A stretch of DNA of 64,000 nt, taken from positions 15,344-79,343 of IMG/VR virus record IMGVR_UViG_2754412319_000001; one strand, 5' to 3'. Positions 22,743 to 39,293 of this stretch are shown piece after piece. Source of the DNA: a virus (Duplodnaviria; Caudoviricetes). The position numbers were made by a program, and so were the translations under genes. The notes under the pieces were generated by a model. The model made no database searches, had not been told where the DNA came from, and saw nothing but the letters and a program-made list of their open reading frames with translations. Positions within the stretch are counted from its first letter, which is position 1. Each line of letters begins with the position of its first letter.

Positions 22743-23318
22743 TCAACCTCCCTTTGCAAGTCCCTTTCGACTCATCAATAGAGGTTTTAACAATTCATCT
22801 GTACTTACTCCTCTGTTAAGTGGGCTATGCAGTACGACTTTGGCGGAAAGGTACATCTGGTGAGCCTCTTCGGGCGTTGAGAACGTGCCCAAGTGGATAG
22901 CCTTGTCTCGAAAAATAGTCGCCCTGTAGTTGCCTGACTTAGTGACGACGACCCCTGGTAGAGATTCTTTCGCGATAGAAATGTTACTTTCAGTTACAGC
23001 TTGAGCGGGGTCAAACAAGTTTTCAATTCTGTTGTTTTGCTTGTCATTGTCGCGATGCTTAACTTGACCGGTGGGCCAGTAGCCACAGGCTAAGGCCCAT
23101 ACCAGGTGATGCTCGTAGACGACCAGTCCCTTGAAAACTACCTGCCGAAAGCCTGACGCCTTGTGTAAGGAACTAGCGACTTTTCCGGCTGATCTCGGTC
23201 CTCTAGCGCTGTTTGTCAGTCGAATGACACGACCCGCCTCGGGATCGTACCCGAAGTGCTCACGCGCCATCTCGACCGTGAAATCCTGGCGCTTCAGCTT
23301 CTCTTTCTCCATCGTCAT
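22743..23318 (-). CDS. HNH homing endonuclease with C-terminal AP2 domain
   Basis: YDPEAG, HHLVWAL...VKHRDNDKQNNRIENL, PGV...YRATI...IHLGTFSTPEEAH; lower GC. Confidence 0.85.
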   Translation of the reverse strand: MTMEKEKLKRQDFTVEMAREHFGYDPEAGRVIRLTNSARGPRSAGKVASSLHKASGFRQVVFKGLVVYEHHLVWALACGYWPTGQVKHRDNDKQNNRIENLFDPAQAVTESNISIAKESLPGVVVTKSGNYRATIFRDKAIHLGTFSTPEEAHQMYLSAKVVLHSPLNRGVSTDELLKPLLMSRKGLAKGG

Positions 23319-23675
23319 CTCGTCGTCATGTGAGTGTGCCGCACGATCACAGTGGGCAAGCACACCTGCGGTGCATCAATCAAGAAAAATCGGGTTGGTC
23401 TAGACCGTTCGGAGTCCGACCGTCGTATGTAGGCGTTGTCGGCGCTGCAACAGTCGCCTCAATTATTGCGATCCCACCCCATCTAACCGCCGTCGCTCGA
23501 CCGTGTCCCTGTCCGCGGGGCGGGGGCGGTAGCGTGAGAAGTATAAAGCATACTATGGTTGTAAAATCGAAAAATTCAAAATGACCGGCCCTACCATAGT
23601 CGCAACCGCAGCGCAACTAGCCCGCTTAAAATCATAGTATCCTTATAACCGTGGTAGATGCAGTGACGCAGCGAC

Positions 23676-23695: not shown

Positions 23696-23848
23696 CGCGC
23701 TGGGGGAGACGTGCGCCTTGTGCACACGTAAGCCCCAAAGGTTCAACGTTGAACCTTTCGCAAGGCAGGTAAGCGAAAGGTGCAAGTTGAACCAAAGCAA
23801 ACGGCGCAATCCCGCGCAATTCGCAAACCTACGTTTAGGGGTACTGAC

Positions 23849-24607
23849 ATGGCAGACTTTCAAATCGCAACCGGCGCGGCAAGCTACGCTGCTAAGGAAA
23901 TCATCGGCACGGAACGCAGCGCAATCACGCGCGCTTACTCGGCAATCGTTGCGCTTTGCCTGCGTGACGACAATCACGGCGCGCGCGGCTATGCGGCCCG
24001 CCTGATTGACGTTCTGAGCGAGCAAATCGCCGAGCAGCGCGCCGGTAAAAAATGGGCGGAAATGGGCGCGGCCGATCGCGTAAGCGCCACGCGTGCCGCG
24101 TTTCCGACCGCGAAACGCTACGCGGAAAAATCGGTCGGCATTGCCAAGCAAGCGGCGGACAAGGGCGCACCCGTAACCGAGATCGCGAACGCGGAAAAAG
24201 ACGACGAAGCGGCGGCGATCGTGCGCGCATGGTTGCTCGGCATGGGCTGCACGTCGCAAGACGCGCTGTTTGCCGCGTTCGGGTTCGCAAAAGCGGCCGG
24301 AAATCGCGAGCCGAAAGCGGCAACCGCGAAAACGCCGTCAGCAGTGACGAACGCGACGCCTGAAGCGCCCGCGAGCGACGCACAACCGGCAGAAACGCCC
24401 GCCGCTGAGGCACCCGCGCCGGATAACCGCAGTGTCGCGGATGTTTCGCGCGAAAACGCGGCGCGTTTCGCTGAATCCGTGCGCGCCGTGATGGCGGGTA
24501 TGTCCGATGCGGATCGGCAATTCTTCGCGCAAACCATTCTCGCCGACGTACAGGCAGCAGCAGCCCTTAATGTGGCAGTCGCTGAGGCTGAAGCGGTAGC
24601 GGCATAA
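23849..24607 (+). CDS. Ala-rich hypothetical protein, first early gene
   Basis: RBS AGGGG; start MADFQIATG; Pro/Ala linker; hairpin downstream. Confidence 0.75.
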   Translation: MADFQIATGAASYAAKEIIGTERSAITRAYSAIVALCLRDDNHGARGYAARLIDVLSEQIAEQRAGKKWAEMGAADRVSATRAAFPTAKRYAEKSVGIAKQAADKGAPVTEIANAEKDDEAAAIVRAWLLGMGCTSQDALFAAFGFAKAAGNREPKAATAKTPSAVTNATPEAPASDAQPAETPAAEAPAPDNRSVADVSRENAARFAESVRAVMAGMSDADRQFFAQTILADVQAAAALNVAVAEAEAVAA

Positions 24608-24615
24608 GTCAACCG

Positions 24616-24642
24616 CGCCCGGTTGCCAGACCGGGCGTGTTT
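24616..24642 (+). terminator. Possible terminator
   Basis: CGCCCGGT/ACCGGGCG stem with weak T tail. Confidence 0.4.
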
Positions 24643-24845
24643 GAACGGCTCGCGCGTGGTGGCGTGAGTCGTTCCTTTTTATTCCCCCTATAGGGGCCGG
24701 CGCTACCGTTCATGCGCCGGCTCCTGGGACATCTTCGCATCCACGAATCCGGTCATGCCTCTGCGGCAGGCGTAGTAGCGCCCAATAGGCGGCTTGACCC
24801 GAAAACTGGATCAAAAGTGCAAGTTGAACCTTCCGGAGAATTCCG

Positions 24846-25226
24846 ATGCGCTACCTTGACCCGACGATCAGCAATTACTCGAAGGCGATTTCGAGCGGTC
24901 TCGAAACGCAGCGCCAGTATTACCGCGCGTTTTGCTTCGATCAGCAGCATGGCGAGCGCGCCGAGCGGCTGGCGTGCATTGCGATGATCCGCGCCAATCT
25001 CCCGGAGGAGGAGTGGCCCGAGTTCGCGCGCGAACCCGCTACCGCGCCTGCGGCTGAAGCGGTAGCGCGGCCCATGACGCGCAAGCGCCGCCGCGCGGCG
25101 GAGGCGCGATACGTGCGCGAGCAACAGATTCAGGAGACGCGGCTGGACCTGAGCCGGCTCGTCGACGCGTGGGGCGCGAATGTGCGCGATGGTGCGACGC
25201 TGCGCGCGATCCGCGGAGGGCGCTGA
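24846..25226 (+). CDS. Hypothetical protein
   Basis: RBS GGAG; operator palindrome just upstream. Confidence 0.6.
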   Translation: MRYLDPTISNYSKAISSGLETQRQYYRAFCFDQQHGERAERLACIAMIRANLPEEEWPEFAREPATAPAAEAVARPMTRKRRRAAEARYVREQQIQETRLDLSRLVDAWGANVRDGATLRAIRGGR

Positions 25227-25227
25227 C

Positions 25228-25341
25228 ATGGTCGCAGGAGCGGTAGCGGTAGCGGGCGTGGTAGCGCTGCTCGTGTGGGGCGCGCTCGATCGCTGGGAAG
25301 TGCGGCGCGTGGAAAGGTTCAACTTGAACCGAAATGGTTAA
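25228..25341 (+). CDS. 37-aa single-pass membrane peptide (not in ORF track)
   Basis: RBS GGAGGG; MVAGAVAVAGVVALLVWGALDRWEVRRVERFNLNRNG. Confidence 0.5.
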   Translation: MVAGAVAVAGVVALLVWGALDRWEVRRVERFNLNRNG

Positions 25342-25829
25342 TGAATGGCAATGCCGCGTCAGGCGAGACGCGCCCATTTATCTGATAGTTGGAGGGGGCG
25401 AATTAGCGGGAGCGGTAGCGAATGTGCGGAGCGTAACCCGGTTCGGAAACTATGTTGTTTCCATACAACATATTTTTCCTTGCCCCTTTCGGCGCTACCG
25501 CCCCCACTCCCGGACCATTGGCGTTGATGGCCAGGAGGGTTTGCAAAGCGCAGCGGCAACTATCTGATAGTTGTTTTGACTTTGTTTCTAGAATCAAGGA
25601 CTTAGCAATATAACTTATCTTCTTTTTCTCTTTCACTTTCCCGTTCCCAAGAAGAAAAAGGAGGGACAAGGATGAGCGCCAAAGTCGACTTCATTGCGAA
25701 ATCGCATCTATCTGATAGTTCTAGTTTTATATAAAGAATGAATCAGACGTCCATCCTTGTCCCCCCTGTTTCAGCGAATTCTGGCCGATTCGCGATTCCG
25801 ATCCATCTATACGATAGTTGCTCACCACC
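25342..25829. other. AT-rich non-coding control region, candidate replication origin with four CTAT-N3-ATAG-type boxes
   Basis: Boxes at 25376, 25558, 25706, 25805; pyrimidine/purine tracts 25618-25672. Confidence 0.5.
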
Positions 25830-26225
25830 ATGAAAAATCCGTCCGTAAACCCGATATGCTTGTCCCCCTCGCAGCAAATCATCGAGACCGCGCGGCGTAA
25901 CGCGCTGCTCGCTACCGCTCCAGCTCGTGCTCTTGCTCCAGCTCGTGCTCCTGTAGCGTGCCGCGCGCTCGTGCTCCACGCTACCGCTCCAGCTCTTGCT
26001 CCGCGAAACGTGCAACTTGCACCTTCGCTGCACGACGCCCGAGCCTATGTGCGGACAACGACCGTCTCGACGAGTCGCACCATCAACGGCTGGAACGTGA
26101 AGGTGCAGCTCACCGCTCGCGAGCTGGCAACCGCGGATTCCGCCGATCGCACCATCGGCAGACTGTGCGCCCTGATCGCCGGGATTCTGGCCATGATCGG
26201 GATCTGGACGCACATCTTCGGCTGA
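25830..26225 (+). CDS. Hypothetical protein with Ala/Pro repeats and a C-terminal TM helix
   Basis: GCTCCAGCTCGTGCT tandem units; LCALIAGILAMIGIW; start uncertain (25818 or 25830). Confidence 0.5.
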   Translation: MKNPSVNPICLSPSQQIIETARRNALLATAPARALAPARAPVACRALVLHATAPALAPRNVQLAPSLHDARAYVRTTTVSTSRTINGWNVKVQLTARELATADSADRTIGRLCALIAGILAMIGIWTHIFG

Positions 26226-26349
26226 ATCCACGGGCCAGACCGTTTTTCCAGGCATAGGCGGGCCTTGCGGGACCTCCCGAATACCCACCTAGCCAAAGAC
26301 AACGCCAGCGGCTTATAGCGCCTCTGGCACAACCCTTCCGAAAGGACTC

Positions 26350-26763
26350 ATGAGCACCACCACCATGCCGCTTTATGCTGCGATCGCATCCCTGCGCGCA
26401 ACGATCGAGCGCTGCACCGCCGCTGACACGCAGCACCCATTCCTTCCCATTCACGAAGCACGCCTCGGAAAGCTGCTCGACATGCTTCCTTCAGGCTCAG
26501 GCATTGATTCGGGCACCAAACTTCTCGAAGACGAGTGCAAGAGCAACAAGCTGGTATTTCAAGCTGATTTTCACCACATGAACGAACATGGGATGTACGA
26601 CGGCTGGTCGGAACACCACGTGATCGTCACACCATCGCTGGAAACGGGGGCTGTCATCCGGATCACGGGTCGTAACCGGAACGGCATCAAGGACTATTTG
26701 CACGACGTGTTTCATCACGCGCTGTTTGACGAAGTCGACCCTTACTCGATTGGTTCAACTTGA
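26350..26763 (+). CDS. Hypothetical phage protein
   Basis: RBS AAGGA; LPSGSGID motif. Confidence 0.7.
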   Translation: MSTTTMPLYAAIASLRATIERCTAADTQHPFLPIHEARLGKLLDMLPSGSGIDSGTKLLEDECKSNKLVFQADFHHMNEHGMYDGWSEHHVIVTPSLETGAVIRITGRNRNGIKDYLHDVFHHALFDEVDPYSIGST

Positions 26764-26803
26764 ACCATCGCCTGAGAACCAACAAGAAGAATCAAGAAAG
26801 ACC

Positions 26804-26923
26804 ATGAACGCAATCTACTCCGAAGCGCCCCAGCTGTTTGATGCAATCGATGAGCTGTTCAAGTCGCGTGAAGACGTCGATGCGCAGGACATTCGACCCA
26901 TTTTGACCCTGTTCGCGGACTGA
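26804..26923 (+). CDS. Small hypothetical protein (39 aa)
   Basis: ATG after A-rich leader; in frame with the track ORF. Confidence 0.45.
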   Translation: MNAIYSEAPQLFDAIDELFKSREDVDAQDIRPILTLFAD

Positions 26924-26961
26924 CATAGATCAGCCTGAACCCCTGAAGAGAACCCACCACC

Positions 26962-27264
26962 ATGAGAACGATCAAGACGTACGAGACGGCCGATGGCCGG
27001 CAATTCAGCGACTACACCGAGGCACTGAGCCACGAAGTGAACGTGGCATTGCCCGACAACCTGGCTCAGATCATCAACGACGCGTATGCCAACGCCTCGT
27101 GCGGCGTTGCGTTGCAGGATGAACCGCTCATGAAGATCGTGGACGGGATCACCAACAACCTCGCGCAAGTCGAGGACATCCTTCAGCGGATCAGGGAAGG
27201 GCGGAGCAAGCTCGAAGGGCTGGAGACCGTGCAGCGGATCGTATCGCAAACGGGCAGGGGGTGA
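26962..27264 (+). CDS. Hypothetical protein (paralog 1)
   Basis: N-terminal YETADGRQF...EALSHE. Confidence 0.7.
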   Translation: MRTIKTYETADGRQFSDYTEALSHEVNVALPDNLAQIINDAYANASCGVALQDEPLMKIVDGITNNLAQVEDILQRIREGRSKLEGLETVQRIVSQTGRG

Positions 27265-27268
27265 GGCC

Positions 27269-27559
27269 ATGCGCGAGATCCGCAAGTACACCAGCTCGGA
27301 CGGCAGGGAGTTCGCCACGCAACGAGAGTGCGCCGAGCACGAATGTTCCGTCACGGTGCCGGCCAAGCTCCGGCAGCGCCTGCTCAAGTTCTATCAGGAG
27401 GAGCACGGCGCGATCACGAGCAAGGTCGAGCAGGCAACGTTCGATCGCATGTGCGCCACGCTGGTCCTCAACCGGCGCAACGCACGGGTCATCCGTGACG
27501 TGTTGCAGGAGTTCAGCAACGCGGCCACCCACCTGCCGCTGGAGCCGGTCTATGCCTGA
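27269..27559 (+). CDS. Hypothetical protein (paralog 2)
   Basis: N-terminal YTSSDGREF...ECAEHE. Confidence 0.7.
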   Translation: MREIRKYTSSDGREFATQRECAEHECSVTVPAKLRQRLLKFYQEEHGAITSKVEQATFDRMCATLVLNRRNARVIRDVLQEFSNAATHLPLEPVYA

Positions 27560-27893
27560 CCGCATGCTCGCTCCGGACGCTGGTGCGACCTTCATCTACA
27601 GGGGCCGCACCTATCGCGTCAACTCGTGGATCTGCGTGGCCGAGCCGCCACCCACAACCGACAACTGGATCGACGAGATCCTGTTCGACGCGGCCTATGA
27701 ACGCAATGGCGTGCGCTTCCGCTACTGCCCCCGCGACATGGCCACCCACGTCTCCGGTTCCGGCATCGCGGGCTGTATCGCGCCGATCGCCGAGATCGAA
27801 GTAACCGGCACCGTCAAGTGGCCGGTAGAACAACTCGAAGCCCACCGGATGAGTGCCATCCTGCGCGGCAAGCGGGGGCAACTCATCATGTAG
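27552..27893 (+). CDS. Hypothetical protein
   Basis: Coupled start MPDRML; RBS GGAG. Confidence 0.6.
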   Translation: MPDRMLAPDAGATFIYRGRTYRVNSWICVAEPPPTTDNWIDEILFDAAYERNGVRFRYCPRDMATHVSGSGIAGCIAPIAEIEVTGTVKWPVEQLEAHRMSAILRGKRGQLIM

Positions 27894-27901
27894 GAGGGTC
27901 T

Positions 27902-28180
27902 ATGTGGTTCTCGCGTCGACCCAATCCCGTCGAATGGCGAAAAGGTCGATGCCCGAGCCTCGTGGGCAAACCTATCGTCGACTGCGCGCTCGTGAACGGC
28001 AATGCCGTGTTCATCGTGCCGCGCGAAGACGGGCATTGGGATTACTTCGTCTATGGCTGCATCCGCAAAACCGCTGACACCTGGGAAGACGCCGCGCGTC
28101 TCGTGACTGCGGCTGCAAACCTGCAATCTGACTATTACCTTGGGCCAAAAGAGTTCGAAGCTCTGGTTGGTTCAAGTTGA
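27902..28180 (+). CDS. Hypothetical protein
   Basis: RBS AGGAGG; start MWFSRR. Confidence 0.65.
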   Translation: MWFSRRPNPVEWRKGRCPSLVGKPIVDCALVNGNAVFIVPREDGHWDYFVYGCIRKTADTWEDAARLVTAAANLQSDYYLGPKEFEALVGSS

Positions 28181-28194
28181 ACCGAGGAACAATC

Positions 28195-28839
28195 ATGGGC
28201 AACACCACCACCTACGGCCCGTTCGAATCGTTCGAAGAGATGATGACCGACGCTGGCCAGCGCGCACCCTACGTCGAACGTGCAATGCAGATCGTGCTGA
28301 CTGCGAGCGTGTTCGAGCAGCTGAACGACGAGCAGCGCGACGTGAACCTGCCGCTCGACGTCCTCATCGACAACATGGCGAAGCAGTGCGGCATGGTCAT
28401 CAAGCCGCACGAGGACGGCCCACGTCTGCGCAAGGCGTGGTACTACGAGCTGGAAGACGAGCGCAACGTGGTCGACCATCCCGACTCGCTCAACGAACGC
28501 GAAGTGATCCTGCATCTGACCGCGCTCCTGGAGCATTTCGCCGGCATGCAGGAGACGAACGAGCAGCGCATCGCGGCTCTGTATGCGCAGCGTGGCCGCA
28601 TGTGCCTGAAACAGCGTCCGCATCCGATCTCGTCGCTGCCTTACGCGGATCGCCAGCGCATGGCATTCAACATGCGGGACTTCGCCGGCGGTTTCGCTCA
28701 GAAGCTGGCTCACGCATGGATCAACGCGGACATGACGAACGCCAGCAAGATCGAAGAAGCATTCCCGCACCTGTTTGTGAAATACGCGGACACGTATTTC
28801 GACAAGGTGCGTGAAGAGCGCGAGGGAGTGCCGGCATGA
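28195..28839 (+). CDS. Hypothetical protein
   Basis: RBS GAGG; host-like codon bias. Confidence 0.7.
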   Translation: MGNTTTYGPFESFEEMMTDAGQRAPYVERAMQIVLTASVFEQLNDEQRDVNLPLDVLIDNMAKQCGMVIKPHEDGPRLRKAWYYELEDERNVVDHPDSLNEREVILHLTALLEHFAGMQETNEQRIAALYAQRGRMCLKQRPHPISSLPYADRQRMAFNMRDFAGGFAQKLAHAWINADMTNASKIEEAFPHLFVKYADTYFDKVREEREGVPA

Positions 28840-29012
28840 ACAACCCTAACTTCAGCTATTACGCGATCAACCGCAAAACGAAGTACATCGTGGCGGGCTT
28901 CGACAGCGCGCTCGATGCCAACGCGTTTGTAGCTAAGCAGCTTCACGACGAGTACACGGTCGTATCTCGTTCTGAAATCGCTCAGATGTACCCGGAACAC
29001 CGGGCAAGCTAA
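28836..29012 (+). CDS. Small hypothetical protein (58 aa, not in ORF track)
   Basis: ATGA-coupled start MNNPNFSYYAINRKTKY. Confidence 0.55.
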   Translation: MNNPNFSYYAINRKTKYIVAGFDSALDANAFVAKQLHDEYTVVSRSEIAQMYPEHRAS

Positions 29013-29034
29013 CACCACCACCACGGATCAAAAC

Positions 29035-29343
29035 ATGAACAACCAGGAACTGGCCAAGAACACGACTGAAGTCGATATCAATGCCGCGGCCGCGGCTGAC
29101 GTCGACAAACTCATCACGAACGCAACGGTTCAACTTGAACCTCCTGCGCCGTACACGCGGCGCGAAGTGAAGTTCGCTCGCGATCTGCTTCAGTTTCAAC
29201 TGAGCGAGCACATCAAGCGGGTGATTGCCCGATTCGAGAGCGAGACCGGCGCAAAGGTTACGGGCATCACCTACAACCCGTACACCACGGCCGATACCCC
29301 GGTGGCGCTGACCGTCTACCACAACGACGAATACGTCTTCTGA
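29035..29343 (+). CDS. Hypothetical protein
   Basis: ACCACCAC-GGATCAAAAC leader. Confidence 0.65.
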   Translation: MNNQELAKNTTEVDINAAAAADVDKLITNATVQLEPPAPYTRREVKFARDLLQFQLSEHIKRVIARFESETGAKVTGITYNPYTTADTPVALTVYHNDEYVF

Positions 29344-29350
29344 GGCGACG

Positions 29351-29626
29351 ATGAAAATCCGCCACGTCTTCGACTTCAACAAGGCGCTGGACCACGGGCC
29401 ATACACATGGCCCGGTGGATATCCGTGCTACTTCATCACGTCCGACTGCGAAGCACTTTCGTTCAAAGCTGCGCAGGAGAACGCCGGCCTGATTCGTGAC
29501 GCGATCATCACGAACGACAAGCATAGCGGCTGGAAGCTGATCGCGATGGACATCAACTGGGAAGACGCAAACCTGACCTGCTCGCAAACGGGCCAGAAGA
29601 TTGAGTCTGCGTACGGGGAGCACTGA
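29351..29626 (+). CDS. Hypothetical phage protein
   Basis: YTWPGGYPCYF motif; RBS GAGG. Confidence 0.7.
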   Translation: MKIRHVFDFNKALDHGPYTWPGGYPCYFITSDCEALSFKAAQENAGLIRDAIITNDKHSGWKLIAMDINWEDANLTCSQTGQKIESAYGEH

Positions 29627-29627
29627 C

Positions 29628-30062
29628 ATGCACGTCGAACGTCTCAATATGCTGAGCAACCTGCTCAAGACCGCCAACCCGAACCACTTCGATCTCGGCG
29701 ACTGGGTAGATACGCCGTGGTCGACCGACGAAGCGCTGGCAATCCCGAACAGCGATCTCCGTCAGCGCGTCATCGAGTGCGACACGACCGCGTGCGCAGT
29801 TGGCTTGGCCTGCATGACGCCCGAGTTCCAGGCTCAAGGTCTCAACTATAAGTGGGACACCGCGTGCCTCCATTCGGCACTCAGCCCAACTTTCGAGGGC
29901 GAAGAATCGTGGACGGCCGTGTGCAACTTCTTCGAGATCGACCGACCCACGGCCGACCGCTTGTTCTCGCATCACGAGTACGCGGATGGGCGTGAAACGG
30001 AACCTTCGCAGGTCGCGGAACGTATCGATGCGCTGGTCCGCGGGGAGAGCATCAATGGCTAG
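29628..30062 (+). CDS. Hypothetical phage protein
   Basis: FDLGDW...CDTTACAVG motif; RBS GGGGAG. Confidence 0.7.
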   Translation: MHVERLNMLSNLLKTANPNHFDLGDWVDTPWSTDEALAIPNSDLRQRVIECDTTACAVGLACMTPEFQAQGLNYKWDTACLHSALSPTFEGEESWTAVCNFFEIDRPTADRLFSHHEYADGRETEPSQVAERIDALVRGESING

Positions 30063-30234
30063 ATTTACCATCACTGTCGCGCGGCCGACGTACTACACGC
30101 ACGACTTCGAGGCATCGAGCGTGGAAGAAGCGAAGCAGGCTGCGCTGGACGCATTCGAACAGCACGGCTCCGAAGCTTTCGACTACGAGAGCAGCGGAGC
30201 TGCTACCGCTCATGAAGGAGATGCACCGCAATGA
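30055..30234 (+). CDS. Small hypothetical protein
   Basis: FEASSVEEAKQAA; coupled. Confidence 0.6.
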   Translation: MARFTITVARPTYYTHDFEASSVEEAKQAALDAFEQHGSEAFDYESSGAATAHEGDAPQ

Positions 30235-30503
30235 GCCTGAACAACCCGAACATCCCCCGATTGGCGACGCTCGACTTCACGAGCGACGAGACCTGCACCT
30301 TCTACGCGGTCGAGTGGATCAACGCGGCCGGCGAGTGGTTCATCGACGTGTACCGTCAGGAGGCGGGCCGCGACGATCACGCCGTGCAGCTTCACAGCGA
30401 CGGTGCAAAGTCGGTCGTCATCTATGACCTCATCGGCCCCTTCAACGCGGACATTGACGAGGCTGGAGACTTCGCTCGCGACAACCGGCGCCTGCACGTC
30501 TGA
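30231..30503 (+). CDS. Hypothetical protein
   Basis: ATGA coupling; RBS AAGGAG. Confidence 0.65.
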   Translation: MSLNNPNIPRLATLDFTSDETCTFYAVEWINAAGEWFIDVYRQEAGRDDHAVQLHSDGAKSVVIYDLIGPFNADIDEAGDFARDNRRLHV

Positions 30504-30530
30504 AGTTCAAGTTGAACCAAGGATAACGAC

Positions 30531-30860
30531 ATGAACGTGGAACAACGAATCAAGATCGAGAAACAGATCGTCGAGAAGATCGTCGTCGACGCACTGGCCG
30601 CAGGATTCAAGCTCAGTGTGTTCGACGGAGAAGAAACTGCCATCTCGAAGAGTACGGACAAGGACAAGATCCTCGCCCGACTCTTTGAATGTGAAGTCGA
30701 ATATCTGCGCTTCTGGAAATTCGACGTGATCGTCGGCACCGTGACACTCGTCTACGGCAACGACGGCTGGGACGTGATCTGCGATCACCACCTCGCTCTG
30801 GAAGACGTCCTCAAGGGCGCGAACGAACTGGCCAAGCAACTGGAGGCGCGGCACGGATGA
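30531..30860 (+). CDS. Hypothetical phage protein
   Basis: LVYGNDGWDVICDH motif; RBS AAGGA. Confidence 0.7.
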   Translation: MNVEQRIKIEKQIVEKIVVDALAAGFKLSVFDGEETAISKSTDKDKILARLFECEVEYLRFWKFDVIVGTVTLVYGNDGWDVICDHHLALEDVLKGANELAKQLEARHG

Positions 30861-31054
30861 ACCACGAGCAATTGCTGGAGCACATCAAGCGCCTCGAAGC
30901 GCGCATCGCCGAGCTGGAGCGCGACCTGTATTCGATGCCCGAAATGGATGAGCGCCGGCAGCGGCGGCAGCTGATCGAGCGGTTCCGCGCGCAGGGTATG
31001 AGCGGCAAGCAGGCGAAGAATGCCGCGTGGCGCGAGTTGCATGTCCCGAGCTGA
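30857..31054 (+). CDS. Small coiled-coil hypothetical protein
   Basis: ATGA coupling. Confidence 0.6.
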   Translation: MNHEQLLEHIKRLEARIAELERDLYSMPEMDERRQRRQLIERFRAQGMSGKQAKNAAWRELHVPS

Positions 31055-31078
31055 CCCCAATTTCACAATGTGGAAACC

Positions 31079-31285
31079 ATGAGCAAACCGATCTACCGCA
31101 CCCGCTTCACCACCAAGACCGGAGCGTACCGCGTCCGGGAATTCCGGTCGCAGAAGAACGCTGAGACCCATGCCAAACGGCTCGCCAACGAGGGCGCTTA
31201 CGGCTACGTCGAGCGCACCACCGCCGTGTCGACGCGCGTGGTCAGCAACTGGGGCCGGGGCACACCCGAAACGCCGGCCGCATAG
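31079..31285 (+). CDS. Small basic hypothetical protein
   Basis: Start MSKPIY (alternative GTG 31070). Confidence 0.55.
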   Translation: MSKPIYRTRFTTKTGAYRVREFRSQKNAETHAKRLANEGAYGYVERTTAVSTRVVSNWGRGTPETPAA

Positions 31286-31319
31286 CGTAGAATCAACTTA
31301 CAAAGTACAAGGAGAAATC

Positions 31320-31682
31320 ATGATGTCTGTCGCATTCGACACCTTGGCTTACGTCAAGCGCCTCGAACAAGGTGGGGTCCCGCGCGAGACGGCGGTCATG
31401 CAGGCCGAGGCACTGGCTGACGCGATCGACCAGACCTTGGCGACCAAGCAAGACCTACTCAACACGCAGGCTGCGGTTGAGCAGAAGGTCGACGCGACGC
31501 GCACTGATCTGCGTCGGGAGATCGACAACGTCCGCGCAGACATGAAGCTTGGCCTCTCGGAGACACGTGGCGAGTTCCGTGTCGAGATCGAGAAGGCGAA
31601 GACGTCCATGATCATCTGGCTCGTGAGTCTGACCATTCTCGCGACCGCTGCGCAGATCGCATCACGCGCGTTCCTGCACTGA
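31320..31682 (+). CDS. DUF1640/CCDC90-like coiled-coil membrane-anchored protein
   Basis: FDTLAYVKRLEQGGVPRETA..QAEAL; C-terminal TM helix; RBS AAGGAG. Confidence 0.8.
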   Translation: MMSVAFDTLAYVKRLEQGGVPRETAVMQAEALADAIDQTLATKQDLLNTQAAVEQKVDATRTDLRREIDNVRADMKLGLSETRGEFRVEIEKAKTSMIIWLVSLTILATAAQIASRAFLH

Positions 31683-31702
31683 TACACCGCGTCAACCGAA
31701 GA

Positions 31703-31734
31703 AGGGCGCGCTCTGGCCAGCGCGCTCTTTTTTT
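31703..31734 (+). terminator. Rho-independent terminator
   Basis: AGGGCGCGCT/AGCGCGCTCT stem followed by T7. Confidence 0.8.
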
Positions 31735-31757
31735 GTATTCATCGTCACCACCACATA

Positions 31758-32213
31758 ATGAAAACCATCGAACTCAAACCCACGTGGCAGGCGCTCGTGC
31801 CGGTGCTGCTGGCCGTTATCGAAAGCGGCACGGCCGAAGGGCGAAGCAAGGCGAAGGCAGAATTGGTCGACCTCGCGAAGAGAGTCGACGAGATCAACGA
31901 AGAGATCAAAAAGCGGGCAACCACGCCCCGCGGCAAGAAGGTCCAGTACCTCGAAGCACAGGGTGCGTACGAAGCCGGCGTCATCCTGCGCAATGGCGAC
32001 AAGGCCGCGCTCGTGACCAACGAAGGCCGCGTCGAGTGGTTCAAGTTGAACGAATTCGGCGGTATCCAGCAGCTGGCAGTTCTGCCGCAGCTGGTCGCCG
32101 CGCTGGACGACATGCTGTCGATCGACGACTGGCATGATGACTTGATCGCGAATCCGCAGACGATCGCGAACGCTCAGGCTGTGCTGGCGCTCGGGAAGGA
32201 CGCGCTGAAATGA
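31758..32213 (+). CDS. Hypothetical protein
   Basis: Codon-consistent ORF. Confidence 0.65.
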   Translation: MKTIELKPTWQALVPVLLAVIESGTAEGRSKAKAELVDLAKRVDEINEEIKKRATTPRGKKVQYLEAQGAYEAGVILRNGDKAALVTNEGRVEWFKLNEFGGIQQLAVLPQLVAALDDMLSIDDWHDDLIANPQTIANAQAVLALGKDALK

Positions 32214-32875
32214 GCAGCCCCTTCAAAACCAAACTCATCCTGTCCGAGTCGGACCACGAAGGTACGGGCTTGCTGCTCAAGGAAGTCGGCGAGCAGGTGA
32301 TCTGCGAGTTCGACCGTACGCCGCAGATGCAAGAGCACGCCGCGTACATCAAGCAGGCGGTCAACGAGCACCCCGAGCTGCTGCGCAAGCAAGAGATCAT
32401 CTTCGACCTCTCGTTCACGCTCGGCAACCGCTGGAACACGCTCTCGGACCAACTGACGGGCGACATCATGGACCACAACGGTGGCTCGCGGGGGTTGTGC
32501 GATCTCGTGAAGTCCTGGGCCGACGAGTTCGACGCCGACTGGGAATCGCGCAGTGAAGACGACCAACAGAACTACCTCGTGGATGTCGACGAGTTCGCGA
32601 ATCGCAAGATCGCCGAGCTGCTCGATTCCGTGAAGCGCCCCGAGCCGCCGCCGCCGAAGCCGATCAAGGTCACGCACCGCTACAACCGCGAGCTTGCCGA
32701 GAACACCTTCCACTACGTCGGCGTGAAGTGGCAGATCGTCTTCAAGTGCGACGATGGGTCCGTCTACTGCCGCGAGACGCTGCCGGCGATGAAGACCCTG
32801 AACGACGTTCTGACGTTCATTCGGGAACAGTGCAACTTGCGCGGTTTGAGCAGCGCTGACATTCATCGGTGGTGA
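32210..32875 (+). CDS. Hypothetical protein
   Basis: ATGA coupling. Confidence 0.65.
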   Translation: MSSPFKTKLILSESDHEGTGLLLKEVGEQVICEFDRTPQMQEHAAYIKQAVNEHPELLRKQEIIFDLSFTLGNRWNTLSDQLTGDIMDHNGGSRGLCDLVKSWADEFDADWESRSEDDQQNYLVDVDEFANRKIAELLDSVKRPEPPPPKPIKVTHRYNRELAENTFHYVGVKWQIVFKCDDGSVYCRETLPAMKTLNDVLTFIREQCNLRGLSSADIHRW

Positions 32876-32877
32876 TC

Positions 32878-33219
32878 ATGAAAGAACCTGTCCGATACTT
32901 CACCCCATATCCGTTCACGATCGAGACGCTGCAACGTCCCGGCGAGCCTGCTCGTTACATCATCTCTCGCGCGAGGGTGGGTGGCCGCTACAGCGACGAG
33001 CTGTTGAGGAAGGAAGAGGCCGAGCTGCTGCTGCACACGTTGACGCGTGAAGAAGCCGACAAGGAGCAGCTGCGCTACCGCATCTGGCAACTCGAACAGC
33101 AGTTCACCTGGGCGATGTCCGAAATCAAGGAGCGTTACGAGGGACCGTACGAAGAGTGGGCACCTGAGCGCGCTCGATACAACGAAGCGCTGACCGTGCT
33201 GCGGGGGATAAAGCAATGA
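32878..33219 (+). CDS. Hypothetical protein
   Basis: Start MKEPVRY (alternative GTG 32869). Confidence 0.6.
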   Translation: MKEPVRYFTPYPFTIETLQRPGEPARYIISRARVGGRYSDELLRKEEAELLLHTLTREEADKEQLRYRIWQLEQQFTWAMSEIKERYEGPYEEWAPERARYNEALTVLRGIKQ

Positions 33220-33803
33220 AATTGCCGATTCGAATCGAAATGGCCAGCGAGTTGATGGATCTGTCGCCTGAAGAGTGTGCCGACTACACCGATCGCGTCG
33301 AGCGAGTGGTCGACGCTGCGGACGACACGGTCTGCTACACCGAGAACGGATATTTCGCGATGCCGTTTCTCGACGCGCACGCAATCGTCGTCGCGATCAA
33401 CACCCACCAGAAGCTGGTCGACGCATTGCGCACGGCGCAGGGCTACGTTGAAGAGGTTTCCGAGGCAAGCGGCTTTGGTGCCGATCATACGTTGCCAACG
33501 ATCAACGAAGCGTTGCTCGCGGTCGAGCAAGAAAACTGGTTGACATACGACTCCGGCCCGCAGGACAACGACCGTTACACGGTCTTCCCGTACTGGATGG
33601 ACGATGAGGCCGACGACGTGTCGCGTCGCACGTACCTCGGCTTCAACATGACCCCATCGTCACCGAACACCGGGGTCAGCGTGTGGGGAGAGCTGCCGAA
33701 GGGACAGCATCCGGGGGCATACCTCGGAAAACTGATTCGCTTCGCCGAGCTGCCCGAAGCCCTGCGCAAACATGCCATCGCACGAGTGAGGGATATCGGA
33801 TAA
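33216..33803 (+). CDS. Hypothetical protein (probable two-domain mosaic)
   Basis: ATGA coupling; DRYTV...HLGK-like C-terminal half. Confidence 0.6.
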   Translation: MKLPIRIEMASELMDLSPEECADYTDRVERVVDAADDTVCYTENGYFAMPFLDAHAIVVAINTHQKLVDALRTAQGYVEEVSEASGFGADHTLPTINEALLAVEQENWLTYDSGPQDNDRYTVFPYWMDDEADDVSRRTYLGFNMTPSSPNTGVSVWGELPKGQHPGAYLGKLIRFAELPEALRKHAIARVRDIG

Positions 33804-33806
33804 CCC

Positions 33807-34292
33807 ATGAAGATCAAGACACACGAACTGCTCGGCGCGGGACTCGACTGGGCCGTTGCCAAAGCCGAGGGCAAGCCGATTGTCCACGATCCGATGGGGT
33901 TCAAGATTGGATCGGAAGCTGGCTACTGGATATGGGACAAGACGCCGAAAGGCCTCATGACCAAGATCGGCCGTGACTACACGCCGTCAACCGACCGAGA
34001 CAAGGGGTTCGAGATCGTAGAGCGCGAAGGCATCGCGATCCGCAAGCACACGAAGACGGGCAACTGGTACGCGATGACGAGTGCAGATCTCGGCAACGAC
34101 ACAACTGCTCGTTGGGAAGAGATGACAGCGCGCGGCGGCGAACGTTACGGCGTGGAGTCGTGGGCAATCCACAAGCGCCGGCAGCGCTTCATCGGTGAGA
34201 TGCCGCTCATCGCCGCGATGCGCTGCTTCGTCGCCTCGAAGCTCGGCGCTGAGGTTGACGTGCCCGATGAACTGGTTGGGGGCCAACAATGA
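33807..34292 (+). CDS. NinX/DUF2591-family phage protein
   Basis: ELLGAGLDWAVAKAEG...YTPSTD...PLIAAMRCFVASKLG.EVDVPDEL. Confidence 0.75.
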   Translation: MKIKTHELLGAGLDWAVAKAEGKPIVHDPMGFKIGSEAGYWIWDKTPKGLMTKIGRDYTPSTDRDKGFEIVEREGIAIRKHTKTGNWYAMTSADLGNDTTARWEEMTARGGERYGVESWAIHKRRQRFIGEMPLIAAMRCFVASKLGAEVDVPDELVGGQQ

Positions 34293-34969
34293 AATTGAGT
34301 GAAGTCGGTGGTGCACGCGGTGCACCGATGGGGCGTCGCGACACCCACGGCGACTACGATGCCGCCATCAAACTGATCGTCCACCACTGTCCCTTCGTCG
34401 ACGGCGCCTACGACGAAGGCGGAGCGTACTGGGGCGCGGGGGAGCCACTGTGGCGGGCTATCGAACCCGAGGGTGACGTGGAGTTCTTCCTGCGCGGCAA
34501 AGACCGCTGGGAGATTCTGGAAGACGTTCGTGACCTGTATCCGAACGCGAAAATCATCGACACACCGCGCGAACGCTGGTTCGTAGAATTCTTGGCAGGC
34601 TACGAAGAAGCTGCACTATGGTCGAACGTCGACGCGATCATGAACGATGACGGGGAGGAGGAAACGGTGCATCTCGACGGCGGCTACGAGCTGCACGACG
34701 AGACGAAAACGAAGTTCCGCGAGGACTGCAAGAATTTCTGTGACTTCGCCGAGCCGCAGTTGCGCCGTGCAATTAATTGCAACGGCTACGGGGCGGTCGA
34801 GGCGGGACGTGATTTCTGGCTCACGCGAGCGGGCCAGGGGGCCGGTTACTGGGATCGCAGCCAGCTACCGCGTGAACTGCGCGACCAGCTATCCGCCGCA
34901 GCCCGTGACGCCGGAGGCAGAGAGCTATACATCGGCGACGACGGGTTGATTCACCAAGGGCAAACATGA
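34289..34969 (+). CDS. Hypothetical phage protein (two conserved-looking halves)
   Basis: GAPMGRR...YDEGGAYWG and GRDFWLTRAGQGAGYWDR. Confidence 0.7.
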   Translation: MKLSEVGGARGAPMGRRDTHGDYDAAIKLIVHHCPFVDGAYDEGGAYWGAGEPLWRAIEPEGDVEFFLRGKDRWEILEDVRDLYPNAKIIDTPRERWFVEFLAGYEEAALWSNVDAIMNDDGEEETVHLDGGYELHDETKTKFREDCKNFCDFAEPQLRRAINCNGYGAVEAGRDFWLTRAGQGAGYWDRSQLPRELRDQLSAAARDAGGRELYIGDDGLIHQGQT

Positions 34970-35091
34970 CCCCGAAGACTCGGAATTCAGTACAAGCCCG
35001 TTCAGGGCAGTAATAGCAACGCCCGTCGGGGAGATTTGCTACCTCCCCTGTATCGAGCGGGAAACATAACCACCACATTGAGGTAATCACC

Positions 35092-35322
35092 ATGTTGAGT
35101 GCAATCATCACCATGTTTACGGGCAAGTCGCCCGCTAAAGAAGCGAAGAACCAGCTGCGCATGACGCGCCTCGCTCTCCTCGAAGCGCGTGCTGCATTCG
35201 AGCATTTCCAAGCGGAAGTCGCGAAGCTTGAGGCACGTGAGGCGCGTCTGGCCGCGCACGTCTCCGACGACGAGCGCCAATACCAGCGGGAAGCTCAAGC
35301 CTCGATGGCAGCTGCGATCTAA
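35092..35322 (+). CDS. Small coiled-coil protein
   Basis: RBS GAGGT. Confidence 0.6.
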   Translation: MLSAIITMFTGKSPAKEAKNQLRMTRLALLEARAAFEHFQAEVAKLEAREARLAAHVSDDERQYQREAQASMAAAI

Positions 35323-35399
35323 AAGTTCAAGTTGAACAAGGCACGTCTGGCCACGCGCCTCGTTTACCGAATCAGCTAACAAACCACCACAGCATAACG

Positions 35400-36158
35400 A
35401 TGACCAATATTGATAAATCCGCGCTCGACGAGCGCGCGCGTCAGCTCGTCCGTGAAGAAGTGCATGCGTGTGTCAGCGTGTTGATCAGCGACCTCAGCAA
35501 ACTGGTCGCTAATGCCGATCCGCATGTGCTGCGTGAGATAAGCGTCGATCAGGATGAGTTGTTCGGGATCTGCGTTCAGGATGACCATAAGTCCGCAGCA
35601 GAACACGAAGACTACGTCCTGTTCGAGAATGAATATGGTGAGTACGTCGCGCTTCATCCCGAAGATGACGTAAAAGGGAATCTCACTCTCGACAACCTCG
35701 AATACTTCGAAAACGCGGGGAAGTTCTATGTCCTTCCTGAAGAATCGGTGGACGAGATCAAAGAGCTGGACGCGCCCGATCAGGCGAAGATCAGCACAAT
35801 CATTGCAACCGCGAAGGCGCGTGAAGATAGCGGAGACACCGATGGGATGTTCTTCGAAGCAGAAACTGAACACGCAGTGTTGAGCGCGTACCTTAACAAG
35901 CACTACGCCGACGAATGGTACAGCGACGAACAAGAAGCGTGGCGTGCAGCGTGTGAAACGAACAGCATCGAGCCGGATACCTGCGAAGCCTACGAACACT
36001 GGATCGTCTCTGGCTGGCTCGCAGGAAAGCTTGAAGAGCGGGGCGAGATGGTGAATCGCGACATTTGCGGTCTCGTCGTGTGGGGACGCTGCACGACTGG
36101 GCAGGCCATCTACATGGATGGTGTCATCCAGGAGATAGCGCGAGACCTTATCGACTGA
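35400..36158 (+). CDS. Highly acidic hypothetical protein
   Basis: About 57 D/E versus about 20 K/R by hand count; C-terminal EHWIVSGWL...WGRCTTGQAI. Confidence 0.7.
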   Translation: MTNIDKSALDERARQLVREEVHACVSVLISDLSKLVANADPHVLREISVDQDELFGICVQDDHKSAAEHEDYVLFENEYGEYVALHPEDDVKGNLTLDNLEYFENAGKFYVLPEESVDEIKELDAPDQAKISTIIATAKAREDSGDTDGMFFEAETEHAVLSAYLNKHYADEWYSDEQEAWRAACETNSIEPDTCEAYEHWIVSGWLAGKLEERGEMVNRDICGLVVWGRCTTGQAIYMDGVIQEIARDLID

Positions 36159-36202
36159 GGTAGGGCATACTTCTAGTCCTTTTATAGACAGAGAGGGCGG
36201 AA

Positions 36203-36616
36203 GTGAACAAGGTGATTCTCTGCATTGCTCTTACGGGGTGTTTGACGGCGTGTGCGTCGAGAACTCTTCCACTTGAGCAGGCAAAGGACGTTCCTGCGGA
36301 CAGGGTCTATTCGACGAAGTTTGCGCAACCGGTGGAAGGTGCGCAGAAGATCACGGTTATACGCACTGGGGGCTCGTTTATCGCGGGCGGGGGTGCGCGC
36401 TATGAACTGTTGGCCGACGGTGTGAAGATCGCATCAATGGCGACTGATGAGCGCGTCAATCTATACCTCCCCGCGGGCGAGCACCTGCTTTCGGCGCGCA
36501 ACGGCGTGTGGACAAGCATTGAGCCGCAGTCCATCGTGATCAACGTTCCCAGTCGATATAAAACATTCCGGCTCGATTCTTCGAGCGGGGTGTTGTTGCA
36601 ACCTGCCCTTGAATGA
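36203..36616 (+). CDS. Lipoprotein (moron-like)
   Basis: Signal peptide with lipobox LTAC; RBS GAGAGGG; own terminator. Confidence 0.75.
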   Translation: MNKVILCIALTGCLTACASRTLPLEQAKDVPADRVYSTKFAQPVEGAQKITVIRTGGSFIAGGGARYELLADGVKIASMATDERVNLYLPAGEHLLSARNGVWTSIEPQSIVINVPSRYKTFRLDSSSGVLLQPALE

Positions 36617-36643
36617 GCGACGTCTAGTCGCTACGCCATGTTC

Positions 36644-36674
36644 AAAGCCCACCTACCGGTGGGCTTTTTATTTT
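36644..36674 (+). terminator. Rho-independent terminator
   Basis: AAAGCCCACC/GGTGGGCTTT stem followed by T-rich tail. Confidence 0.85.
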
Positions 36675-36701
36675 CTCAATTCAGCACAAAAGGATCTGCA
36701 C

Positions 36702-36866
36702 ATGTTCATGTCTGATACGCAAGTTTTGCGGACGTACCTCGTAGCGGCGACTGTTGAGCAAGCACGCAAGGTGGGCTTCGAGGAATCGTTTCGTTCCCTC
36801 GTCACGCAGCAGCTTCATGACATGTCGGATGCAGACGTCCGCGCAATGGCAAGGATCATCGTATGA
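36702..36866 (+). CDS. Small hypothetical protein
   Basis: RBS AAGGA; start MFMSDTQ. Confidence 0.5.
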   Translation: MFMSDTQVLRTYLVAATVEQARKVGFEESFRSLVTQQLHDMSDADVRAMARIIV

Positions 36867-37177
36867 CGCCCATGAAGTTCCACCAAACCTACGCGGTCGT
36901 CACCGACGAGAGCGCGGAGAACGGTGAAGCAGAGGAGACCGGATTCGACTGGCAGGACATGCCGTACACGTTCAAGCAGCTGGTCCACACACTCGAATTC
37001 GAGTACGCCGGGGCCGAGCCGAGCGATTACCCCTCAAGCAACCCTCGCTGGATCACGAGCTACGGCGAGCGTGGCATGCACGATGGGTCATTCCGCAACA
37101 TCTCCCTGCATCCGGCAAACGACCGCGCGCGCCGCTGGTGGCCGCAGGCCCTGAAGGCCGCAGGAATCACGAAATAA
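36863..37177 (+). CDS. Hypothetical phage protein
   Basis: YAVVTDESAENGEAEETGF; ATGA coupling. Confidence 0.65.
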   Translation: MTPMKFHQTYAVVTDESAENGEAEETGFDWQDMPYTFKQLVHTLEFEYAGAEPSDYPSSNPRWITSYGERGMHDGSFRNISLHPANDRARRWWPQALKAAGITK

Positions 37178-37188
37178 GGGAACCAGTC

Positions 37189-37911
37189 ATGCGACTGTAC
37201 AACGGGGACACTTTCGAGCACGAAGGTTATACCTTCAAGGTTCAATTTGAACGCGACGACGACGTCGAGGAGCCGTGGAATCGCTCCGAAGGCAATGGCG
37301 TCGTGTCGGACTGGACGCGTCGCGATAAGCAGCCGGGTGAAGTCGTGCTGACGTCCGACCGTGGCATGTACCGCTACTACGACATCGCCAAGACCAACGC
37401 GATCGCTAAGCGCGATGGTTGGGGTTTGACTGAAGAGGACAAGGCCGAACTGGTCAAGCGCCTCGCTCAGAAGCGTGTGGTGCGGCGACCAATCGGTAAA
37501 CCCAGTCTTGAACATCATTCAGGAGGAGTCTTTAAGGTTAAAGGGGCGAATTCTGAAGTCGTGGAATTGCCGGGACGAGATCCTGGCAAACGTTTAACGG
37601 CTGGCGAAATACGGGCTGAAGCCGTTCGCCGCAATTTCGAATTCATGCGCCAATGGTGCAATGATCAATGGGAATACACGTGGGTCAAGGTGACTCTCGT
37701 CCGCATGGACGACGATGGCGAGCCGGTCGAAGACGAACGCTTCAGCGATAGCGTAGGCGGCGTCGAGTCGTACAACGACTACCACATGCAGGTAGCGCTC
37801 GAATGCGCAAACAACGTGCTTTCTTCGATTCAAAACGCACTATTGGACGATCAGAAGGAGGAGGTCGAACGCCGGCATTGGGCCGAGCGCGATGTGCCAA
37901 CTATCGTATAG
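37189..37911 (+). CDS. Hypothetical phage protein with internal low-GC segment
   Basis: Start MRLYNG; RBS AAGGG. Confidence 0.65.
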   Translation: MRLYNGDTFEHEGYTFKVQFERDDDVEEPWNRSEGNGVVSDWTRRDKQPGEVVLTSDRGMYRYYDIAKTNAIAKRDGWGLTEEDKAELVKRLAQKRVVRRPIGKPSLEHHSGGVFKVKGANSEVVELPGRDPGKRLTAGEIRAEAVRRNFEFMRQWCNDQWEYTWVKVTLVRMDDDGEPVEDERFSDSVGGVESYNDYHMQVALECANNVLSSIQNALLDDQKEEVERRHWAERDVPTIV

Positions 37912-37946
37912 TCAAAATGGAAGGAGAACCCTTTATCAAATAGAAT
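37899..37946 (+). promoter_or_regulatory. AACTAT-N3-ATAGTC box 27 nt upstream of TAGAAT; a second box overlaps the -10
   Basis: Boxes at 37899-37913 and 37931-37945; -10 at 37941-37946. Confidence 0.5.
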
Positions 37947-38073
37947 GGCATCTCTCTCAACCGACCGATGAACGTTGCGGGCAACAAACAGTTATACCCA
38001 ACTGCACGGTTAATATTTCAACAAAGAAATGATCATCTAATGTATGATCTTGTGATCGAAAGGTGACAGCAAG

Positions 38074-38307
38074 ATGGCACTGCAAACGGCAGCACAGAAG
38101 CGGAAGTTCGTGAAAGACCTCATCAAGAATGTGCAGGATGACGTGATGAAGCGCATCGAGCACATGCCTGCTGACTGGGACGGCGTCGAGCTGCGCACGT
38201 ACATCGGCACGAAGTTCGAGAATGAAAAGGATACCTTCGCATTGCGGGGCAACACCGCACGAGGCCGCGCCTTCAACGCCGAACTGTCGAGCAACCGCCA
38301 CCTGTAA
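38074..38307 (+). CDS. Hypothetical protein
   Basis: Codon-consistent ORF. Confidence 0.65.
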   Translation: MALQTAAQKRKFVKDLIKNVQDDVMKRIEHMPADWDGVELRTYIGTKFENEKDTFALRGNTARGRAFNAELSSNRHL

Positions 38308-38366
38308 ATACAAGAACACCGACGTACCGATAAGCTGGCCCTTGTCGTTGCGTCGCGGAATAAGAC

Positions 38367-39274: not shown

Positions 39275-39293
39275 CGACTTTTCGAGAGAAAAC

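Follow-up and report, generated by a model that had tools for sequence, protein, structure and literature searches.

What could a dozen near-identical palindromes be doing among the presumed early genes of an integrated phage? The question is raised by IMG/VR virus record IMGVR_UViG_2754412319_000001 (79,343 bp, 60% G+C), an integrated temperate JWF-like siphophage of Burkholderia, of which bases 15344–79343 were analysed as a single 64,000-bp window whose numbering is used below. Twelve copies of GGTTCAA-N-TTGAACC or close variants lie between 23740 and 37253, and a repressor/operator system, working in a stoperator-like manner, appears to be the best fit to them that sequence comparisons offer. 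On balance, we are inclined to regard them as some twelve operator-like sites through which one phage-encoded dimeric protein would silence the early arm, with lineage-specific co-evolution of protein and sites. Such a many-operator repressor would fit because the palindromes are phage-restricted and co-evolving, a tandem pair of them heads the arm, and the lifestyle of the element is temperate.

A palindrome confined to the early arm

The earlier note on this DNA had listed about twelve copies of the palindrome, and all twelve are present where it placed them. Scanning with the pattern GGTTCAANTTGAACC, with up to two mismatches allowed, returned 11 matches against 0.17 expected from shuffled sequence, the highest value reached by a shuffle being 3. 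When the whole 79,343-bp record was scanned, all matches fell within window positions 23740–39985, leaving the structural/primase arm without any, so that the claimed restriction of the motif to the early region stands; the one copy past 37.3 kb (39985) and another at 33898, both intragenic and with two mismatches each, are probably due to chance. A motif scan of the host genome, set beforehand as a test, also agreed with this restriction: in the 8.6 Mb of Burkholderia paludis MSh1, the 13-bp core GTTCAANTTGAAC occurs five times, in the early arm of a near-identical prophage, and at no other place. The confinement of the core to the prophage therefore excludes a host regulon and implies a reader encoded by the phage itself.

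The arm in question lies past the primase gene, where an HNH-family gene on the opposite strand (22743–23363) is followed by a 480-bp non-coding stretch and then by about 35 small rightward genes (23849–37911), the presumed early arm. It is taken as early because its counterpart in Achromobacter phage JWF begins inside the terminal repeat. Pfam and PHROGs searches gave a recognisable family for almost none of these genes, which leaves the host-takeover role given to them in the earlier note putative; megablast of the arm against GenBank phages gave no match, and a search for known RNA genes returned neither an Rfam family nor a tRNA.

Short intergenic gaps hold about two thirds of the sites, 11–93 nt 5′ of a start codon, and the remaining third or so are intragenic, in accordance with the mixture of junctional and intragenic positions described in the earlier note; copies accompany only about a third of the genes. 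The palindromes are perfect or nearly so, with C or G, without preference, as the central base, and in two of them the TGA within TTGAACC serves as the stop codon of the preceding gene. Among the five genomes that contain this motif, referred to below as class A, the sites are 92.4% identical and their 60-nt flanks 85.8%, thus the sites are under selection; changes are mostly found at the central base, at position 4 (T/G), and in the outermost pair.

At the head of the arm, site 1 (GGTTCAACGTTGAACC, 23740–23755) leads a tandem pair 93 nt 5′ of the first early gene; it is a 16-bp form with a 2-bp spacer and constitutes the core of a perfect 22-bp palindrome (23737–23758). Its partner, site 2 (GGTGCAAGTTGAACC, 23779–23793), 55 nt 5′ of the same gene, combines the hybrid half-sites GTGCAA and GTTCAA, is unable to form a hairpin (free energy, ΔG, −0.6), and is identical in the four other class-A genomes. 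Site 3 (AGTGCAAGTTGAACC, 24816–24830) lies 15 nt 5′ of the ATG of the second early gene, and relatives have a palindrome of their own class at the orthologous position. Site 4 (GGTTCAACTTGAACC, 25316–25330) borders a poorly coding gap of about 1 kb, and the variant site 5 (CGTGCAACTTGCACC, 26009–26023), a perfect palindrome with symmetric GTGCAA half-sites, is the least conserved of all and is deleted in one relative. Further along, site 6 (GGTTCAACTTGAACC, 26752–26766) overlaps the final codons of gene 26350–26763 and supplies its TGA stop, while the TGA of site 7 (GGTTCAAGTTGAACC, 28169–28183) ends the preceding open reading frame, this site abutting the Shine–Dalgarno sequence GAGGA 11 nt 5′ of the ATG at 28195. 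Site 8 (GGTTCAACTTGAACC, 29127–29141) is located within gene 29035–29343; site 9 (AGTTCAAGTTGAACC, 30504–30518) follows immediately after a stop codon, 12 nt 5′ of the ATG at 30531; and site 10 (GGTTCAAGTTGAACG, 32038–32052) is again intragenic, in gene 31758–32213. Site 11 (AGTTCAAGTTGAACA, 35324–35338) begins 1 nt past a stop codon and lies 61 nt 5′ of the ATG at 35400, and the final copy, site 12 (GGTTCAATTTGAACG, 37239–37253), is found near the start of gene 37189–37911, inside the coding sequence.

DNA sites, RNA hairpins, and other signals of the arm

The form of the sites argues for double-stranded DNA sites of a dimeric phage-encoded protein rather than RNA hairpins, because the half-sites are conserved while the spacers vary, some conserved copies do not fold, the sense strand lacks a G·U bias, and a third of the copies are intragenic. 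Thus, the central base is free, and the length of the spacer varies by one base in classes A, C, and D (defined below). Three class-A sites pair a GTGCAA half with a GTTCAA half and are identical in the five genomes, and the internal G·A mismatch of these hybrids prevents folding (ΔG 0 to −0.6). Taking all classes together, mismatches on the sense strand comprise 6 of the G·U type, 8 of the A·C type, and 25 others, and the hairpins formed elsewhere are weak (−3 to −8 kcal/mol). The preservation of compensatory or G·U pairing by which structured RNA is recognised was not found, and the sites have no Rfam match.

The main rival to the DNA-site reading is a role at the level of mRNA, in which hairpins just 5′ of ribosome-binding sites would lend stability to processed transcripts, adjust or hide the Shine–Dalgarno sequence, or serve as operators of a phage translational repressor. 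Most intergenic copies end 11–24 nt before an ATG and abut the Shine–Dalgarno sequence in all lineages, an arrangement for which the shortness of the intergenic gaps could equally account. Moreover, in Caulobacter phage Seuss, the right half-site AGGTAAA is itself the Shine–Dalgarno sequence of four genes, and the outermost-pair variants of JWF all still pair, as A-T or G·T on the sense strand. However, a conserved stem with a variable loop is the reverse of what RNA-binding proteins usually prefer, copies with an internal mismatch that cannot fold are nevertheless conserved, G·U does not exceed A·C, and the hairpins are weak. Neither the intragenic third of the copies, which is distant from start codons, nor the service of about one gene in three would be expected of such an element, and we consider an mRNA-level role unlikely.

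The palindromes could also act as intrinsic terminators or pause sites, weak and bidirectional, that dampen transcription along the early arm and are possibly overridden by a phage antiterminator, given that many copies are flanked by 5′ AAA and 3′ TTT or TTTT and place G+C-rich stems at gene junctions. Intrinsic terminators are recognised by a stable G+C-rich stem-loop followed by a U run, whereas the stems here range from 0 to −8 kcal/mol and the T runs are short or absent, particularly in the source genome. A terminator scan called two conventional terminators on the coding strand of the arm, at 24643–24674, after gene 1, and at 36644–36667, ahead of the final sites, and none of the palindromes. 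Furthermore, structure alone would not require the same sequence to recur within a genome, and the non-folding copies would be left unexplained; this explanation is very improbable. The two conventional terminators do imply that the arm comprises several transcription units and is not one simple operon.

The first of these terminators bears on a further alternative, according to which the palindromes would be promoter elements bound by a phage activator, such as a Mor-like helix–turn–helix (HTH) protein, that switches on units within the arm. Termination after gene 1 implies a new promoter before gene 2, where site 3 sits, and the 134-aa candidate binder described below has a weak Mor-family match. 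However, many start codons follow their sites by only 11–24 nt, which is too little to fit a −10 element, transcription start, and leader 3′ of an activator site; an activator role is unlikely for this reason, and it would also fail to explain the intragenic copies, thus the probability we give it is low. A scan with the sigma-70 consensus found no promoter on the coding strand of the arm, and inspection by eye around the sites in several lineages found no consistent −35/−10 arrangement.

Two other repeated or conserved elements are present in and near the arm. A second palindrome, (A)ACTATCNGATAGTT, has four copies between 25376 and 25819, in the AT-rich, poorly coding stretch of about 1 kb after the second/third early gene, and weaker copies at 37899 and 52008. 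It is unchanged across all Burkholderia lineages and absent from JWF, Xylophilus phage Lumi, Seuss, Pseudoalteromonas phage KB12-38, and Acinetobacter phage EAb13, and it may represent an origin or the operator of a second regulator. At 23520–23660, about 270 nt 5′ of the first early gene, all Burkholderia lineages conserve an AT-rich element, GAAAATC-N-AAAA-TT-AAAA, which is flanked by the long-range inverted repeat CATACTATGG ... CATAGTAT and could be an early promoter region or lie near a packaging end.

Rewritten palindromes and candidate binding proteins

The genome that harbours the array encodes leftward siphophage structural proteins, including a 1951-aa tape measure, portal, major head protein, and large terminase, and rightward replication proteins, namely a P4-type primase, a helicase, a PolA-type polymerase, a ligase, and SbcCD. 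Its large terminase shares 60% identity with its counterpart in Achromobacter phage JWF, and more distant relatives are KB12-38, Seuss, Lumi, and Acinetobacter phages such as EAb13. The earlier note had assumed a lysogen, and the element does exist as one: it is integrated and temperate because it encodes a tyrosine integrase at the end of the record (62729–64000, minus strand; Arm-DNA-bind_3, Phage_int_M, and Phage_integrase domain matches), a near-identical prophage with a 95%-identical primase lies within a 290-kb contig of B. paludis MSh1, and the closest IMG/VR records are classified as proviruses. The cargo adjoining the integrase (60625–62675) consists of a DUF4123 protein, resembling type VI secretion chaperones, and an Imm52 immunity protein; this pair is absent from the relatives, and relative G001 has a ParA-like ATPase in its place.

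The array proved to be conserved in related phages, where the earlier note had proposed to look for it, with its sequence changed. All relatives examined except EAb13, a distant relative that has no such array, have a palindrome of their own in the same arm, usually in about 5–12 distinct copies, and eight specificity classes can be told apart in phages of Burkholderia, Achromobacter, Xylophilus, Caulobacter, and Pseudoalteromonas. Class A (GGTTCAA-N-TTGAACC) comprises the source record and four IMG/VR proviruses, and class B (GGTTCGT-N-ACGAACC) comprises JWF, in which 2 of the 12 copies are terminal-repeat duplicates, and Achromobacter phage 2-1. Class C has GTGCAG-N2-3-CTGCAC, class D GTGCGAC-N-GTCGCAC, class E GGTTCAC-N-GTGAACC, and KB12-38 GGGGTAACGTTACCCC, each of these four, as well as class A, having about 10–12 copies; TTACTAG-N-CTAGTAA in Lumi and TTTACCT-N-AGGTAAA in Seuss are represented by about 4–5 exact distinct copies and additional degenerate ones. 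The primases of classes C, D, and E are 78–83% identical to that of the source record, which makes the change of motif recent relative to the age of the family. An IMG/VR search with a profile of the HTH protein returned only genomes already included, a metagenome scan added no lineage, and none of these palindromes appears in any searchable paper, the original JWF genome paper being outside that coverage.

Orthologous positions often retain a site while its sequence differs between lineages. Thus, the first early gene of the Burkholderia lineages examined is preceded, at about 46–107 nt, by a tandem pair or triplet, whose first member has an odd spacer and in classes C, D, and E stands at the same distance from gene 1 as here, and in classes A and C a site stands 11–17 nt upstream of the second early gene. 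Other repeated sequences also occur close to start codons in these phages. In KB12-38, at 34090, 37216, 38037, 42920, and 46397 among other positions, a conserved TTAATTAAACTAAAAC comes after the palindrome and GGATTGA after that, 4–5 nt before the ATG, within a repeated unit about 50 nt long, and the Burkholderia and JWF lineages conserve GGATCAA just 5′ of many early start codons.

This retention of place bears on the idea that the palindromes delimit cassettes, as recombination repeats that shuffle early genes in the way of T4-type PeSL elements or as targets of a phage nuclease or recombinase. The early arm is indeed the most mosaic part of these genomes, sites sit at gene junctions, and an HNH-family gene adjoins the arm. 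However, no sites flank the genes by which the source record differs from its closest relative, a third of the copies are within genes, and repeat recombination would not keep the same positions across lineages that have different palindromes. As for the HNH protein, one lineage is without its catalytic His, and Seuss and KB12-38 have arrays but no such protein. Cassette boundaries are the least probable of the explanations considered.

Among three candidate binders, the best is a 134-aa protein with two HTH domains (42318–42722, plus strand), the N-terminal one Mor/sigma-r4-like and the C-terminal one of XRE type, for which the evidence, from sequence comparison, is suggestive. Classes A and E, with half-sites GTTCAA and GTTCAC, have the same XRE recognition helix, W-T-V-H-K-V-A-A-V-E, whereas the proteins are only 63% identical overall. 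At residue 2 of the helix, class C (GTGCAG) has Ala, class B (GTTCGT) has Thr, and class D (GTGCGAC) has either Thr or Pro, so that V/A accompanies a CA step in the half-site (A, E, and C) and T/P a CG step (B and D), classes B and D not being sister lineages. The earlier note had named this protein and an Arc-like protein as possible regulators; the former co-varies with the motif, whereas the apparent co-variation of the latter can be explained by shared ancestry.

The region around the HTH gene shows two further features. In Achromobacter phage 2-1 (60555–61655 of its record), the 134-aa homologue is frameshifted just past the recognition helix and fused to the downstream 242-aa homologue, which could be a real mutation or a sequencing error. 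The 242-aa protein of the window (42719–43447), whose coding sequence overlaps the HTH gene at its end, belongs to no known family; alone among the neighbours, it is present in every array-bearing relative, including KB12-38, and it was not found in EAb13.

The Arc-like candidate, a 64-aa ribbon–helix–helix protein (9885–10079, plus strand), is antisense inside the late operon and is the weaker one. Its strand motif separates A/B/E from C/D, as does position 3 of the half-site, but C and D may be sister lineages and the DNA-facing T and R are unchanged, and it was set aside as the binder. The third candidate, an HNH_3 and AP2-like protein (22743–23363, minus strand), is encoded divergently from the early arm, at a place kept in every Burkholderia lineage. 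In its class C homologue (GTGCAG), the HNH histidines are replaced (HH to QQ, H to F) in an otherwise intact protein, which suggests a function independent of nuclease activity in that class. Its divergent position and the loss of the catalytic His made a domesticated repressor attractive, but this reading was rejected: classes C and E share the AP2 strands despite their different motifs, the two genomes of class D do not, and the protein is missing from Seuss and KB12-38, where arrays are present. The first early gene (23849–24607), considered as a further conceivable source of the binder, is the most divergent syntenic gene, and its product gave a confident all-helical model (pLDDT 74.5; N-terminal domain above 90) with no match to a solved fold. 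Among 40 further small proteins, Pfam and PHROGs searches brought up no other DNA-binding protein.

Proposed silencing of the early arm and comparison with known systems

In the mechanism we propose, one phage-encoded protein would bind each site as a symmetric dimer, recognising half-sites of the form G-T-K-C-A-A, for which the central base and the outermost pair would matter little. Bound sites would silence the early arm by blocking initiation at its head and/or RNA polymerase en route. In the prophage, this would maintain lysogeny and confer superinfection immunity, and in lytic growth the same protein could shut early genes off. Protein and sites would co-evolve, and each lineage would thereby come to have its own palindrome at the same places. 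As regards the single dimeric repressor of the earlier note, the behaviour of the sites is that expected of DNA targets of one dimeric factor with sequence specificity; that a protein binds them, that it represses, and that it is the one encoded at 42318–42722, which we favour, are matters that we infer.

Several points weigh against this proposal. Lysogenic immunity is not the whole story, because JWF, Lumi, and Seuss are without a tyrosine integrase and have arrays all the same; JWF makes turbid plaques and is UV-reinducible (PMC3899368), and Lumi makes clear plaques (PMC9959647). Thus, silencing of the lysogen, as put forward in the earlier note, suits the temperate element itself, but the function of the arrays is probably not limited to it, and they may also shut off early genes during lytic growth. 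The co-variation of the motif with the 134-aa protein is suggestive and involves only five classes, and no copy of the motif in the whole-record scan adjoins any candidate regulator gene, as an autoregulatory site would. The frequent placement of sites 11–24 nt before a start codon, against the Shine–Dalgarno sequence, is also what an mRNA element would show, and spacer variation of 1 bp within one genome is poorly tolerated by rigid dimers. Finally, because no sigma-70-like promoter can be placed relative to any site, a promoter operator and a roadblock cannot be told apart.

The closest known system in its logic is that of the stoperators of Cluster A mycobacteriophages (L5, Bxb1; repressor Rep/gp71), which are temperate phages with tens of sites beyond promoters, mostly in short intergenic gaps, and with a sub-lineage-specific consensus that co-varies with the repressor and defines immunity (PMC6550527). 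The array described here is similar in having more than 10 copies (12 over 13.5 kb) at junctions and inside genes, beyond promoters, a lineage-specific consensus (eight classes), and a temperate element as its bearer. By analogy, the rewriting of sites between close relatives would resemble the outcome of selection for new immunity in Cluster A phages. However, stoperators are asymmetric 13–14-bp sites oriented with transcription, bound by a two-domain monomer, and found in both genome arms, whereas the sites here are palindromic, orientation-free, and restricted to one arm, in a phage of a Gram-negative host. The stoperator likeness drawn in the earlier note therefore extends to the kept feature and the changed sequence among relatives, and not to membership in the family, which asymmetry and orientation define.

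In form, the closest counterparts are the 17-bp palindromes TGTTCGG-N3-CCGAACA of Cluster O mycobacteriophages, with 7-bp inverted repeats, a variable spacer, and invariant half-sites, which occur in many copies, are denser toward one genome end, and are intragenic in about a third of cases; the start-associated sequences (SAS) of Cluster K mycobacteriophages are mentioned in the same work (PMC4351075). The inverted repeats of 7 bp, the variable spacer, and the intragenic third are shared with the array described here. In Cluster O, however, 34 copies are found throughout the Corndog genome, lysogeny is not known, and no lineage-specific change of sequence has been reported, in contrast to about 12 copies in one arm of a temperate element belonging to a family with at least eight specificity classes. 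The CIRs of Streptomyces phage phiC31 are many palindromic operator copies over the early region, often 5′ of early genes, and are bound by the c repressor; the likeness lies in a temperate phage with many palindromes in its early region, and host group, phage family, and repressor are unrelated. In plasmid RK2, with the 13-bp palindromic OB sites of KorB, and in phage P1, with the C1 operators, one regulator likewise silences a mobile element globally from some twelve scattered sites. The P1 operators are asymmetric, unlike the sites here, and neither a ParB/KorB-like nor a C1-like protein was found in the element. Repeated motifs at the 5′ ends of some genes in a non-structural region are shared with SAS, which overlap the ribosome-binding site and are not palindromes, and with T4-type PeSL elements, which pair a promoter with a stem-loop, but the non-folding and intragenic copies here argue against both models.

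A more far-reaching proposal, which we regard as tentative and rather doubtful, is that the two-HTH regulator (42318–42722) and the array of about 12 sites form a fast-evolving immunity module with at least five mutually exclusive specificities among Burkholderia prophages and more in phages of Achromobacter, Xylophilus, Caulobacter, and Pseudoalteromonas, serving both prophage silencing and, in integrase-less relatives, early shut-off. If so, it would be a Gram-negative, symmetric counterpart of stoperators with a readable code, in which residue 2 of the recognition helix corresponds to the CA or CG step of the half-site.

Multi-site repressor arrays that silence whole arms have been well documented mainly in actinobacteriophages, and a comparable array is now apparent in the widespread, little-studied family of JWF-like siphophages of Proteobacteria, with genomes of about 80 kb. 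The rewriting of the same positions in eight ways constitutes a natural experiment, through which the joint change of specificity of a regulator and a dozen operators becomes testable, as does the question of whether such a change sets immunity groups among Burkholderia prophages. The palindromes are also of practical use in annotating the early arm of these prophages and assigning their likely immunity group, and they may help in judging the lifestyle of family phages of Achromobacter and Acinetobacter, against which phage therapy is being explored.

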